Shown: in pieces, positions 18,814 through 49,558 of the stretch
Layout: every line of letters starts with the position of its first letter
How positions within the stretch are numbered: position 1 is the stretch's first letter
Source of the DNA: a virus
Lineage: Duplodnaviria; Caudoviricetes
Virus record (IMG/VR): IMGVR_UViG_3300025723_000013
Direction: 5' to 3' (one strand)
DNA: 64,000 bases
The notes under the pieces: model-generated
The model's database searches: none
What the model saw: only the letters and a program-made list of their open reading frames with translations
Told to the model about the DNA's origin: nothing
Translations under genes and position numbers: made by a program

Positions 18814-19587
18814 TTACCTTTTAACTGTTTTAATTCCGTATTCTTCAAAAGTTAGTCCGACAAAATCTGTAAATTCTGGATGAATTAATACAAATATTTT
18901 ACTAATTATAGCATTTCTATTAATTACAATCAACGTATTTTTTGAAAATGTCGGATATAATTTTAACAAATCTATACTTCCTTCGCAGTATCCTTTTGGA
19001 GTTTCATATGCGTATTTTGATGCTGCTAAACTCCTAATTCTTGATCCTTTTTTAACATTTCTTTTTTTCCGAGCAGCAAGTGTTTTTTTTAATTTTGTTT
19101 CGATAGAATCTTTTCTTCCCTTTGCAATTGCTGCATAAAGCACACCGTTATATTTTTCAAATAGTTTTTTAGGTATTCTTGCAACTTCTTCTGTGATTAA
19201 ATGTTTTGCTACTACTGTATTTTTACTATATTGGCTAACTATTTTTGAGTGTTTTTCTCTGATATAGGAGTACACTCTATTAGTAATTTTATAATTTCTT
19301 CCAGAATGAATAGAATAAATCATTTTATGCAATGCCTTTATCATTTTAGGATTATTGGTAGCTTTTGCTAATAAAAGATGTGCGATAAAATGATGTCTAG
19401 CACTTAATTTAATTAAATTAGTTCCTTCTGTTCCTCCAATAGATCGAGGAACAATATGATGCATTTCGGTATATCCGGAAAAATTAATAGTTTTACAGAT
19501 TTCTATGAATTTAATATATCGTTCAATTAAAAGTATTTTAGGATTATGAGAATATTTTAACAAATATATTTTAAGGTCGTTAGACAT
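18814..19587 (-). CDS. Free-standing HNH homing endonuclease-like protein
   Basis: TEMHHIVPRSIGG..NLIKLSARHHFIAHLLL; Lys-rich NUMOD-like tail; SD GGAG at 19600-19597. Confidence 0.85.
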   Translation of the reverse strand: MSNDLKIYLLKYSHNPKILLIERYIKFIEICKTINFSGYTEMHHIVPRSIGGTEGTNLIKLSARHHFIAHLLLAKATNNPKMIKALHKMIYSIHSGRNYKITNRVYSYIREKHSKIVSQYSKNTVVAKHLITEEVARIPKKLFEKYNGVLYAAIAKGRKDSIETKLKKTLAARKKRNVKKGSRIRSLAASKYAYETPKGYCEGSIDLLKLYPTFSKNTLIVINRNAIISKIFVLIHPEFTDFVGLTFEEYGIKTVKR

Positions 19588-19596
19588 TAGATTTTA

Positions 19597-19670
19597 CTCC
19601 AGTAAAGTAGTAGAAGGCTATCTGTGTTACTGGTACAGAAGGATGATCAGTCCTTTCGCCTTCTACCACT
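19597..19670 (-). ncRNA. Putative structured RNA leader (three-way junction plus SD-pairing pseudoknot) of the HNH gene
   Basis: 13-bp P1 (one G.U), two inner hairpins, and loop CCAGUAA complementary to UUACUGG overlapping the SD. See findings. Confidence 0.6.
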
Positions 19671-20088
19671 TATTTATTTTAACATTATCTAAATTTGGAT
19701 CATGATAATTTCCTTTTCCTGGGATAACGTGCCTTACTCCACCTCTAGGATTGTCTACATCGCCAAATTTCCTTGGAATAAGATGCACATGCGGCCACAT
19801 CACAGTTTGTCCTGCAGCCTCGCCATAATTAATTCCTATATTGAATCCATCCCATACTTGATTTGTTACTTGATCTTTTCCATAACGAACAGCATCTTCA
19901 AATGCGTCATTTAGAATGTAGATACTATTATATCTTGGAACAAAAAGCAAATGTCCTTCACTTACCGGAAATTTATCTCGATATATGATCACATGAAAAT
20001 CTTCACGGAAAACATCTTTCCAAGGAACGTTTGCATCCTCAATCACTGCTGGTCCATCAAAAATCCTATCTACATCGATATTTGTCAT
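19663..20088 (-). CDS. HIT family nucleotide hydrolase
   Basis: DKFPVSEGHLLFVPR, GFNIGIN.GEAAGQTV, histidine triad WPHVHLIPR. Likely start at 20088. Confidence 0.92.
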   Translation of the reverse strand: MTNIDVDRIFDGPAVIEDANVPWKDVFREDFHVIIYRDKFPVSEGHLLFVPRYNSIYILNDAFEDAVRYGKDQVTNQVWDGFNIGINYGEAAGQTVMWPHVHLIPRKFGDVDNPRGGVRHVIPGKGNYHDPNLDNVKINKW

Positions 20089-26588: not shown

Positions 26589-26617
26589 ATTATATTTAGA
26601 AAACTTTTTTTTGTCAA
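26589..26617 (-). promoter_or_regulatory. Consensus sigma70 promoter for the clamp-dpdA unit
   Basis: TTGACA (26617-26612), 17 nt, TATAAT (26594-26589); TAAATA also at 26598-26593. Confidence 0.85.
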
Positions 26618-26624
26618 TAATTTT

Positions 26625-29327
26625 TTATTCAAAGCTAAACAAACTGCTAAACGTATTTTCTTGAGTGGTAGATTCTAGATCCCAATCCAGTACACCGATC
26701 AAATTGTCTAGTTTATTATTAATGATAGCCGATTCCATGGCAGAATGATCAAATGGCAGTTCTTGAAACCACTTGGGTAATCTCAATTCGTCAACCGGAT
26801 ACGCAACGCTGGTAAAGCCAATGGGATTATCTTTAAGTTTGCAAACAATCACCTTCATTCCGTCCACGATTTGCATTGAATACTTGTCGCCATTCATGCG
26901 TCTTAGCGTATTCCAATTGATAGATGCTCTAACATGTCCGGGCATGTTTGCTTTACCTGCTTTTTCTTCCTTGATTTGATATTCAGCAATGTTGTTGGCA
27001 CGTTTAGGACTACCTTTTTCCCAACCCGGGCGTGCCTTGAACTCTGTGCGAAATTCTGAAATCATGTCTAAGATTTCTTTTTCTCCAGAACCGTTCAATA
27101 CTTTATTTAGAATTTCACTAAGGAAGTTTTGCATAAATTCTGGAGTGTCACTTCTTTTAAGATCCAACCCCATGGCTTTGATCTTGCCAGGTTTTCCATC
27201 AATGTCTTGACGTTTTCCGTCTTTGTCATAATAAAGCACAGCATATCTTTTCTTGGTAATGAATAGCCCTTTAATAGCAACGATTTCTCTGCCTGCCCGT
27301 ATAACATCTCCTCGCTTTTTGGGTGTATGAAAGGCATCCAACATCATTTGCGGAAATGTTGAATTAACTTCTTCAGCCACTGTATTATACAGTTGTATCA
27401 CCGTGTCCTTATCCCAAGGCAACAGTCCTTTTTGTATTTCATTTTTTAAGGTAGTGTAGGCAGTAAAATAGGCACTGTCAGTGTCGCCGTAAATAATAGC
27501 CTTGCCAACATGATCATATTCACCGGTGATTATTTCGTTGATCTTGGCCGCCATGTGTTTTGCGATTCTACGACCCGTGAGCGTGGTAGATTGTCCGATC
27601 CTGTTATCAAAAAATCTGCATCCAGCATTGAGAATAGCTCCGTATAGGCTGTTGAGATTGATCTTTTTCACTAGCTGACGTTTATCCCAATATTCCTCTT
27701 GGATTTTATTTCCAGCATCAATGGCTTCTTTGAGCTTTTTCTGCATTTCTTTACGTTCTTTATACCAACGCGCAAGCAAGCCTGGAATAATTCCTTCTTT
27801 TTCAAACGTAAAAATAGTGCCGTTAGCACTTAGTACCCAGGGGTTATTGCTTTCAAAAATCAATTCGTAAATTTGTGCGCCACTCAGCATGTCATGCCGC
27901 CCATCTTCCCAGTCGATGATGATTTCTTTTACTCGATCCTTGGACATGACCAGTTCATATTCATTGCTGCCGAATTTTCCTTCCCAAGCCAGAGCAAATT
28001 TACCACCATTTTTTGCCATCTTGGTTTCAATTTCTAACTTGGTATACTGTTGTCGCAATTGGCCTATAATGGTTTCTGGGCCCATGTTTAATGCGCGAAT
28101 TACGGAAGGATATAGACTGTTGATGTCCATGGATCCAATCCAATCATGTAATCCTTTTTTAGGATAGGCTACATATGCGCCCGCAGCTTTATCATCTGTT
28201 GAACTATTTTCTTCGTCATCATCGATAGATTCTTTGTCTTTTTTTGCTCGACTTGGGACGATTAATCCCAAGTGATGTGCTTCGTTGATAATTGCCTGTT
28301 CGGTCACTGCCACGGCGCCCATGGTAGTTTTGAGTAGCACAGTGTTTTCGTGAGCAATGCTGTTGGCCAAATCAATAAATTTTAATTTTTTATCTAGTTT
28401 ATCTAGCAGTGCGCAGTCTTGCCTATTATATTCAATAAATTTGCGAAAATCATTATTATAAAGTTGATCAAGTGTACCTTCATAGACCGTTTTAGTTTCA
28501 CCTAATTCATAGTCTGCAATGGCATCGAGACGATAACTGTGACGTTCTTCGTATGTGTACTTTCTATAAAGCTCTAGGCTGTCCAGATGTACCCGGCCTA
28601 CCAAATCATATGTCATGGCTGCCTTGCCGTATTTTTCATATTCTCGCTTTTTAGGCATTTGATCCCATAGACAAAATCTACGTGTATCTTCTTTACTAAG
28701 TACCTTGATTACTCGATTAACGGTATAAGGTATATCAAACCCTTCGCTGTTCCATCCGCTGAGTACATCAGCATCGTCGATGAGATTTAAAAACGTGTCC
28801 AACATTTCATATTCTGTTTCAAACAGCATGGTGTTAGGAAATTCTTTTACCTGCTCTTCGGCCTCTGCCATGGTTAATGTTTTAGGCGGTACAGCAAGAC
28901 ATACCAGAGTATCCAACCATTGTAAATGCACAGCGATCGCGGTGATTGGCATAAATGCATCGCTTGGACTAGCATATCCACGTTCTGGATCAAAATCTAC
29001 CTCAATATCAAAGAACGCTACGTTAAGTTTTGGAGCATCTTTTCCTAGATAGTTTTCTTCAAGACATCGAAAAATGGGATTCATATCGCTTTCAAAAAGT
29101 TTGCGATTTCCATGTATGCGTTGTTCCTTGGTATGCTCTTTCCAACTCTTAGATACAACCTTGACCAATGACTGACCAAAGATACTTGTGTATTTGCCTT
29201 TGGGATCTGGATAATAGAAAAGATATCTTGCTGGATATGTTTGATATATTCGACCTTTGATAGGATCACGTTCAACGACATTGACAATATCGCTGTCACG
29301 ATCCCATAAGGAATCTACGTAACTCAT
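26625..29327 (-). CDS. Family B DNA polymerase (T4 gp43-like) with 3'-5' exonuclease
   Basis: Exo FDIEVD, GWNSEGFD, YNRQD; polymerase DINSLYPS, KINLNSLYG, YGDTDS, KKRY, GLDLKRSD. Confidence 0.97.
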   Translation of the reverse strand: MSYVDSLWDRDSDIVNVVERDPIKGRIYQTYPARYLFYYPDPKGKYTSIFGQSLVKVVSKSWKEHTKEQRIHGNRKLFESDMNPIFRCLEENYLGKDAPKLNVAFFDIEVDFDPERGYASPSDAFMPITAIAVHLQWLDTLVCLAVPPKTLTMAEAEEQVKEFPNTMLFETEYEMLDTFLNLIDDADVLSGWNSEGFDIPYTVNRVIKVLSKEDTRRFCLWDQMPKKREYEKYGKAAMTYDLVGRVHLDSLELYRKYTYEERHSYRLDAIADYELGETKTVYEGTLDQLYNNDFRKFIEYNRQDCALLDKLDKKLKFIDLANSIAHENTVLLKTTMGAVAVTEQAIINEAHHLGLIVPSRAKKDKESIDDDEENSSTDDKAAGAYVAYPKKGLHDWIGSMDINSLYPSVIRALNMGPETIIGQLRQQYTKLEIETKMAKNGGKFALAWEGKFGSNEYELVMSKDRVKEIIIDWEDGRHDMLSGAQIYELIFESNNPWVLSANGTIFTFEKEGIIPGLLARWYKERKEMQKKLKEAIDAGNKIQEEYWDKRQLVKKINLNSLYGAILNAGCRFFDNRIGQSTTLTGRRIAKHMAAKINEIITGEYDHVGKAIIYGDTDSAYFTAYTTLKNEIQKGLLPWDKDTVIQLYNTVAEEVNSTFPQMMLDAFHTPKKRGDVIRAGREIVAIKGLFITKKRYAVLYYDKDGKRQDIDGKPGKIKAMGLDLKRSDTPEFMQNFLSEILNKVLNGSGEKEILDMISEFRTEFKARPGWEKGSPKRANNIAEYQIKEEKAGKANMPGHVRASINWNTLRRMNGDKYSMQIVDGMKVIVCKLKDNPIGFTSVAYPVDELRLPKWFQELPFDHSAMESAIINNKLDNLIGVLDWDLESTTQENTFSSLFSFE

Positions 29328-29339
29328 TTTATTCTCCCT

Positions 29340-29385
29340 GTGATTTATGGCTCACGTACCTTGATGCGATCATTTGTGGCTGATC
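29340..29385 (-). promoter_or_regulatory. Tandem hairpins with GCCAYAAA loops just upstream of the polymerase SD (putative translational operator)
   Basis: GATCA-GCCACAAA-TGATC (29385-29368) and GTGA-GCCATAAA-TCAC (29355-29340); SD GGAG at 29337-29334. Confidence 0.65.
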
Positions 29386-29411
29386 AAACCTTTCTCTTGG
29401 TATATTTATTT

Positions 29412-29681
29412 TTATTCGTCGCGTCGTGCAGCATGCCCGGTAATATCAAGGATAGTTTCCAATGTATCAAAACTATTCCAAACTTTATCCCAGTTGCCTT
29501 TTAATGCGATGTTGATGGCTTTTTTGATATCTGCGGCAGAAATATCTAGTTCTTCTGCGATAGCTTTGATCGTATCGTTAAGTCCTTCGTTGAGAACTTG
29601 AATTTCTTGTTTAACTGTCACACCTTCGGATACGATCTGTTTAAGTTTTGCCTTTTCCGGTTCGCCAAATACTTTACTCAT
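29412..29681 (-). CDS. Small helical DNA-binding protein (T4 DsbA/GapR-like)
   Basis: 89 aa, 'LKQIVSEG..EI..LNEGL.DTIKAIAEELDI..ADIKKAI' pattern; own sigma70 promoter. Confidence 0.55.
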   Translation of the reverse strand: MSKVFGEPEKAKLKQIVSEGVTVKQEIQVLNEGLNDTIKAIAEELDISAADIKKAINIALKGNWDKVWNSFDTLETILDITGHAARRDE

Positions 29682-49550: not shown

Positions 49551-49558
49551 TATTTATA
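49551..49558 (-). promoter_or_regulatory. T4-type late promoter TATAAATA
   Basis: Exact consensus upstream of 49531. Confidence 0.7.

Follow-up and report, generated by a model that had tools for sequence, protein, structure and literature searches.

In the literature consulted, autogenous translational control of a replicative DNA polymerase is described only for phage T4 and a few close relatives (PMC3014915). The T4 gene 43 operator comprises a hairpin of 18 nt, with 5 bp and a loop of 8 nt, and adjoining sequence as far as the ribosome-binding site; gene 43 operator loops contain -UAAC- or -UAAA-, and their 3' AC or AA bases are critical for polymerase binding (PMC3014915). No structure of the gene 43 RNA-polymerase complex exists, and some T4-related polymerases do without autoregulation (PMC3014915). 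In addition, gene 32 of T4 and T2 carries a 5' pseudoknot that is used for autogenous translational control by the SSB gp32 (PMC3014915, PMC535899). That operator comprises a single knot, followed by a long unstructured A/U-rich tract to which gp32 binds cooperatively. Small folded RNAs close to a Shine-Dalgarno (SD) sequence are also found among riboswitches: preQ1-I (Rfam RF00522) is a very small H-type pseudoknot at the SD whose A-rich loop runs along the helix groove, it sometimes occurs in tandem and it is linked to 7-deazaguanine genes. Guanidine-II (mini-ykkC) is built from a tandem pair of small hairpins that share one conserved loop and lie just 5' of the SD.

Here, we analysed a window of 64,000 nucleotides of viral DNA (Duplodnaviria; Caudoviricetes; IMG/VR record IMGVR_UViG_3300025723_000013). 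Its polB gene lies on the minus strand and is preceded by the following features, given in the direction of transcription:

29412..29681, minus strand: gene of an 89-aa T4 DsbA-like small DNA-binding protein, the upstream neighbour (phrog_12534; phrog_639, 'transcriptional regulator')
29414-29412, minus strand: TAA stop codon of the 89-aa ORF
29403..29408, minus strand: TAAATA, a promoter-like, putative -10 box of T4 late type, kept in position in relatives
29388..29390, minus strand: GGU, predicted 5' strand of pseudoknot 1, its partner being the loop GCC at 29380-29378 (96-98% paired)
29367..29386, minus strand: hairpin 1, stem UGAUCA/UGAUCG (5 bp plus a U.G pair), loop GCCACAAA at 29380-29373
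29358..29360, minus strand: GGU, predicted 5' strand of pseudoknot 2, its partner being the loop GCC at 29351-29349
29340..29355, minus strand: hairpin 2, stem GUGA/UCAC, loop GCCAUAAA at 29351-29344
29334..29337, minus strand: GGAG, the polB SD (GGAG or AGGA in relatives)
29327-29325, minus strand: ATG start codon of polB
26625..29327, minus strand: polB, family-B DNA polymerase of 900 aa (Pfam DNA_pol_B and DNA_pol_B_exo1; phrog_262, E 6e-193)

TAAATA is followed by GAGAAAGGU, which contains the GGU at 29390-29388, and a second AAGGU, with its GGU at 29360-29358, stands between the two hairpins. In the window, 2 nt separate the end of hairpin 2 from GGAG, and 12 nt separate it from the polB ATG. 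A preliminary description of this DNA had proposed two hairpins with the 8-nt loops GCCACAAA and GCCAUAAA, a TAAATA at 29408-29403 and a distance of 2 nt between hairpin 2 and GGAG. We found the box, the distance and the hairpins, with their sequences, coordinates and spacing, exactly so on the minus strand. The phrog matches of the 89-aa protein agree with the DsbA-like label given there.

Relatives keep a TAAATA-type box at the same position, with TAAGTA and TAATTA as variants in some rows. Within the window, TAAATA is found 11-33 nt 5' of many minus-strand ORF starts, and the gene just downstream of polB has its own box at 26598. Further minus-strand boxes lie at 49556, 43941, 41062, 35134, 21329, 16215, 15475 and other positions, often in the form TATAAATA or NTAAATA. 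TAAATA is probably the general -10 promoter element of this phage, of the T4 late type, and used even by the polymerase gene. With 81 nt from TAAATA to ATG, versus 11-33 nt for most neighbouring genes, the polB leader is unusually long, its extra length being due to the two knots. Its transcript is predicted to start a few nt before GAGAAAGG, that is, a few bases before the first GGU. Another long leader was observed at 19587-19676 (minus strand), where 89 nt separate TAAATA from ATG and GC-rich complementary segments occur (GUAGAAGGC ... GCCUUCUAC).

Analysed on its own, the window stays at chance level. The 8-mer GCCAYAAA is not enriched in it (5 found versus 7.4 expected), hairpins with a GCCNNAAN loop number 4 in the window versus 2.9 expected, and the single-sequence minimum-energy fold has a z-score of -1.2 and does not even retain hairpin 2. 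It is therefore the comparison with relatives that decides whether the hairpins are real. No DNA-level match to the region was found among 50,697 GenBank phage records, and the nearest named polymerases are those of Sinorhizobium phage Phosso (50%) and of Rak2-like jumbo phages (44%). IMG/VR holds hundreds of contigs with a PolB that is 79-84% identical, and alignment A1 comprises 61 non-redundant leaders of PolB relatives in this identity range. Both hairpins are kept in A1: 85.6% of the cells are paired, versus 22-41% when the 3' partner columns are slid, 176 cells are changed on both sides, and none of 500 shuffles reached the observed covariation. RNAalifold recovered the same two stems from A1, with compensatory changes in nine of nine predicted pairs. 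A 100-sequence alignment made with a covariance model (A3) gave 90.7% paired cells versus 19-45% slid. Changes on both sides were seen in five of the six stem pairs of hairpin 1, and all six stem pairs of hairpin 2 covary, many of them including G-U pairs.

About 130 distinct leaders of related phage contigs keep both hairpins, with heavily covarying stems and nearly fixed loops (GCC-A-Y-AA-D in hairpin 1, GCC-NN-AA-R in hairpin 2). The preliminary description had read compensatory stem pairs and near-identical loops from one sequence and had named loop conservation in related polB leaders as the check; the leader alignments show covarying stems and loops that are conserved in relatives. G-U pairs are frequent (24 of 100 at one hairpin 2 pair, for example), and since each would be an A-C mismatch on the other strand, the sense RNA is the molecule that folds. 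Judged from these alignments, the polB 5' leader is a structured, duplicated and conserved RNA element that adjoins the SD.

Other pairings within the leader were also considered. A helix of the window, UACGUGA/UUACGUA, which encloses SD and AUG, was rejected as not conserved across relatives. Duplexes between leader and coding sequence had energies no better for cognate pairs (-17.3 kcal/mol) than for non-cognate (-17.9 kcal/mol) or shuffled ones (-17.9 kcal/mol). The 3' strand of hairpin 1 in the window can also pair with GGGAUCG in polB codons 10-12, a pairing that is not conserved. At the DNA level, the commonest hairpin 1 stem, GAUCA/UGAUC, places two GATC sites 13 nt apart; they are not conserved across relatives.

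The conserved loop bases have a partner outside the hairpins. GGU or GGC is conserved 5-9 nt 5' of each loop, and 5'-GGY-3' is complementary to 5'-GCC-3'. We assign each hairpin to a predicted H-type pseudoknot, formed when the upstream GGY pairs with GCC, the first three loop bases; as is characteristic of this class, the loop pairs with a strand outside the hairpin, and covariation supports the pairing. In A1 the three-pair GGY:GCC helix is 96% paired, and AGU stands upstream in four of the four rows with a GCU loop, GGU in the others. In the 100-row alignment the pseudoknot helix is 98% paired and its outer pair (17-29 in A3) is G-C in 82 rows and A-U in 15. Thus, the hairpins of the preliminary description survive as a conserved, structured and duplicated element, but their pseudoknot nature, which the GGY:GCC covariation reveals, had been missed.

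Scanning the viral collection for GATCAGCTAYAANTGATC selects on loop and stem, not on the upstream triplet. AGU was nevertheless present in all 17 distinct polB leaders that were recovered; the other seven matches were unrelated coding DNA. Among 130 distinct leaders, loop and triplet of hairpin 1 combine as GCC/GGU in 96, GCC/GGC in 16, GCU/AGU in 16 and ACC/GGU in one, and a single UCC loop is without a matching triplet; the scan adds one more GCU/AGU leader, making 17. For hairpin 2, a complementary GGY was found 5-9 nt 5' of the loop in 130 of the 130 leaders, ACC loops always occurring with GGU. Discordant combinations, either AGU/GCC (a mismatch) or GGU/GCU (wobble only), were found in none of about 190 distinct leaders. 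Scanning with the commonest hairpin 2 in GCU-loop form returned unrelated DNA only, so that covariation of the SD-proximal pseudoknot was taken from a sister clade (see below).

The covariation fits pairing within a unit, not between units: locus L146, for example, combines GGC with GCC in unit 1 and GGU with ACC in unit 2, and leaders with AGU and GCU in unit 1 retain GGU and GCC in unit 2. In a tree of polB 5' ends the GCU state is scattered, with 11 changes, at least nine of them forced by well-supported branches. Because the triplet and loop columns are only 10 nt apart, leader modules may have recombined, and we put no figure on how often compensation arose independently.

A unit is thus made up of GGY, 1-4 nt, a stem of 4-6 bp, the loop GCC-NN-AA-R and the closing strand, roughly 20-25 nt in all, and the A-rich remainder of the loop would cross the 3-bp GGY:GCC helix. 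Between GGY and loop lies a spacer of 7 nt in 121 of the 130 first units; in second units it is almost always 5, 6 or 8 nt long. Loop starts of the two units are 27-31 nt apart (29-30 nt in 111 of the 130 leaders), and across relatives 8-17 nt lie between the end of hairpin 2 and the start codon.

These dimensions bear on the question of whether any protein is needed. A protein-independent cis element could act as a 5'-terminal stabiliser against 5'-end-dependent decay or as a tuner that sets ribosome loading at a fixed level. The first unit would begin about 5-7 nt from the predicted 5' end, judged from the position of TAAATA, and the hairpins alone are moderately stable (mean -4.3 and -4.8 kcal/mol), as such a role would have it. 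However, a stem would be enough for it; invariant loop bases, a covarying loop-tail pseudoknot and a fixed unit spacing would not be required, nor would restriction to one gene be expected, and we regard this explanation as distinctly unlikely. The pattern of substitutions also bears on a function of the DNA itself, as replication origin, protein-binding inverted repeat or methylation target. Although the commonest hairpin 1 stem does supply two GATC sites, the G-U pairs, including U.G in 85 of 100 pseudoknot pairs, are A-C mismatches on the other strand, and freely covarying stems with fixed loops are the pattern of a folded single strand. A DNA-level element is, in our judgement, extremely improbable.

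We used a covariance model built from A1 to follow the element through genomes. In the window a single site scored strongly (79.7 bits, versus 15 bits for the runner-up), the contigs of three relatives (164, 230 and 327 kb) had one copy each, and 100 loci, together 876 kb, had exactly one apiece. Single hairpins of the leader type occur elsewhere in the 230-kb and 327-kb relatives at chance level (regex counts). When the commonest hairpin 1 sequence was used for scanning, almost only polB leaders were retrieved, including those of divergent polymerases that start with MYVD or have a TTG start. That is, the element is present once per genome and only with polB. A 7-bp GCCAGAAA hairpin before a ribosome-binding site in the 327-kb relative was rejected as a further candidate, as it precedes only a 6-codon ORF. 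Phosso, the Rak2-like phages and some close lineages lack the motif; in the polB leaders of Phosso, CBB and PBECO4 it was not found, and the latter two have an apparent terminator-type hairpin there.

In one lineage the element precedes a sulfotransferase-like gene of 209-218 aa, which we considered as a second regulated gene and rejected: polB starts at an ATGA overlap with the stop of this gene, so that the element is still the polB leader, with a gene inserted behind it. The order in this lineage is DsbA-like gene, 93-aa ORF, leader, sulfotransferase-like gene and polB. The inserted gene is found at L236:2400-3170 and also in L164, L216, L234-L238, L243 and L244; the polB behind it is 65% identical and keeps its own ribosome-binding site, AAGGAGAAAA. 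The sulfotransferase-like label derives from ESM Atlas neighbours (Sulfotransfer_2 on 43% of the members of the third-ranked cluster), and no Pfam or PHROG match was obtained for the gene.

Using a 65%-identity PolB as query, we assembled 75 distinct loci of a sister clade, 56 of which have a related but different leader (alignment A2). It begins with TATAAATA or TATAAGTA, identical to the T4 late-promoter consensus, TATAAATA, or one base off it. The promoter box is followed by a GAGUCG-hairpin-CAUG module whose loop is not of the GCC type, by a single pseudoknot unit (GGY, 3-5 nt, stem, GCCAYAAR, stem) and by the SD. Both stems covary in A2 (86.6% paired versus 17-37% slid). In the SD-proximal unit, loop and triplet combine as GCC/GGC in 38, GCC/GGU in 13 and GCU/AGU in five loci, with no discordant case; since five of five GCU loops occur with AGU, the pseudoknot is supported for the SD-proximal unit too. 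The stem of this unit is often CCG/CGG, and its 3' strand continues into the SD as CGGAGA, so that the first two G of GGAG become part of the fold. As for the upstream module, GAGUCG-hairpin-CAUG(A/U)A lies about 75 nt 5' of polB in L299-L375 and has a covarying stem and a semi-conserved loop (ACGUUAC, CGUAA), unrelated to the GCC-loop unit.

Since the sister clade has the SD-proximal pseudoknot only, behind a different hairpin, the twin form is clade-specific. As predicted from both alignments, the conserved core is a single SD-side pseudoknot, of which the twin form of the window is a clade-specific duplication. The duplication that had been noted for this leader thus holds for the window clade, with its two units, but it does not extend to the sister clade, which has one.

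In 19 of the 75 sister-clade loci the search directly before polB turned up no unit. Two of the 19 (L297 and L298) have polB behind a sulfotransferase-like gene, the region ahead of which lay outside the search. L354 has a unit with a broken stem, and in most of the remaining unit-less loci no gap separates polB from the upstream ORF, whose end it adjoins or overlaps. A leaderless polB directly after the DsbA-like gene or a 93-aa ORF was observed in L319, L336, L356, L361, L352 and L370. With several close relatives leaderless, the operator was lost or never gained more than once in the group, and its absence from sister-clade loci marks the element as a dispensable accessory. Loss of gene 43 autoregulation in some T4 relatives has likewise been reported (PMC3014915).

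How does this leader compare with the operators described for T4-like phages? Like the gene 43 operators of T4, RB69 and RB49, the element resides in the 5' leader of a T4-type family-B polymerase gene, next to the ribosome-binding site. Its hairpins share the dimensions of the gene 43 operator (about 18 nt, made up of a stem of 5 bp and a loop of 8 nt), and their loops contain YAA(A/C/G). As with gene 43, the element occurs at no gene but that of the polymerase, and some related phages are without it (PMC3014915). In contrast to the single hairpin of T4 gene 43, there are two units here, each a predicted pseudoknot, which is not known for gene 43. The loops read GCCNNAAR here versus AAUAACUC in T4; they differ in register and are not alignable, the window loops containing AUAAA or ACAAA. 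The T4 and window leaders, compared by eye only, showed no similarity beyond AUAA. Thus, the parallel to the T4 gp43 operator that had been drawn before holds for the size of stem and loop and for the position on the SD side, but not for the sequence. With the gene 32 leader of T4 and T2, the element shares a small H-type knot near the leader 5' end of a T4-type replication gene. However, gene 32 and its protein are different ones, and the knots described here adjoin the SD directly instead of being followed by a long unstructured tract.

An Rfam search, also proposed in the preliminary description, was performed by cmscan with permissive filters; up to an E value of 10 the window leader matched no family. 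Sister-clade leaders were likewise without a match in Rfam, and a literature search retrieved no description of the motif. These results weigh on the possibility that the leader is a tandem small-molecule riboswitch, with each pseudoknot of about 25 nt serving as a tiny aptamer, for instance for a nucleotide or a 7-deazaguanine precursor. In outline the leader recalls known riboswitches: an H-type pseudoknot with an A-rich third loop stands beside the SD, as in preQ1-I, twin hairpins carry identical loops, as in guanidine-II, and the sister-clade stem includes the first two G of GGAG. But the 5' tail pairs with the loop here, not the 3' tail as in preQ1-I, whose model (RF00522) gave no match; there is no evident pocket, and the gene is that of a polymerase. 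Guanidine-II loops are ACGR tetraloops that kiss each other, whereas each 8-nt GCCNNAAR loop pairs with its own GGY; no ACGR tetraloops and no Rfam match were found that would place the leader in this class. Moreover, the fold accounts for nearly all conserved bases and leaves no spacer between stem and pseudoknot to form a pocket, the element is confined to one gene in one phage lineage, and the next downstream gene has its own TAAATA box. We consider a riboswitch very unlikely. In a specific version, the pseudoknots of about 20-25 nt would be ligand aptamers that sense a nucleotide or 7-deazapurine metabolite, the polymerase being made only when precursors of modified DNA are available; this is less probable again, and an aptamer of about 20-25 nt would, to our knowledge, be smaller than any known riboswitch.

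A folded, sequence-specific RNA that lies at, or partly over, the SD of a single gene and occurs once per genome carries the signature of a gene-specific translational operator. From the fold, its conservation and covariation and its exclusive link to polB we infer translational repression and the identity of the binder. We give roughly even chances to a translational operator whose likeliest binder is free polymerase, with autogenous repression as for gene 43 of T4, RB69 and RB49. That PolB specifically is the binder we hold to be quite possible, if somewhat short of even. The polB mRNA leader, about 80 nt long, would fold into two tandem H-type pseudoknots, the second adjoining the SD; a trans-acting factor would recognise the folded units and, once bound, keep the 30S subunit off the ribosome-binding site, so that polymerase synthesis is capped. 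The likeliest factor would be free DNA polymerase, which would then repress its own translation. PolB autogenous repression is favoured by the hairpins, which share the dimensions of the T4 operator, and by the loops, which end in YAAR with invariant AA; the tie of one element per genome to polB also fits an autogenous operator. Several points argue against this reading: the T4 operator, a single hairpin with no pseudoknot known, is not alignable with the element; T4-type polymerases act as monomers, so that a twin site is not obviously needed; autoregulation is missing from some T4-related polymerases (PMC3014915); in one lineage a gene is inserted between the element and polB; the element is dispensable; and in the window clade the SD is unpaired, so that repression would have to be steric.

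The twin site raises the alternative that the operator is bound by another phage or host protein, either a dimeric RNA-binding regulator, the phage SSB or the DsbA-like neighbour. The fixed spacing of the units, 29-30 nt, would suit a dimer or a two-site binder, and a DsbA-like gene stands just 5' of polB in most loci. A general regulator, however, would be expected to have several targets, whereas the element occurs only at polB, and three related contigs yielded no RegA-type general repressor (PF01818). The preliminary description had named the DsbA-like protein as a possible binder, a suggestion that the distribution of its gene does not support: 59 of 62 relatives with a leader have it 5' of polB, but so do 15 of 18 without one, and its presence does not track the leader. 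The gene is also kept in distant phages without the motif, and T4 DsbA has been described as a binder of double-stranded DNA. Taken together, an operator bound by a protein other than the polymerase seems to us unlikely.

Structurally, the element is, as far as alignments can define one, a new RNA family with two architectures, a one-unit and a two-unit form, and a clear candidate for a new Rfam family. Functionally, by analogy, it would be a leader operator at a T4-type polymerase gene, of a kind already known from gene 43. The polB twin-knot element provides a second example of a leader at this gene, independent in shape, and hundreds of contigs of uncultured, freshwater-type giant phages carry it. 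As a compact RNA defined by covariation, it lends itself to the study of RNA recognition by a family-B polymerase or another factor, and the one-unit, two-unit, leaderless and gene-inserted lineages provide natural variants as ready controls. With it one can also examine whether T4-like replication generally requires the dosage of its polymerase to be controlled.
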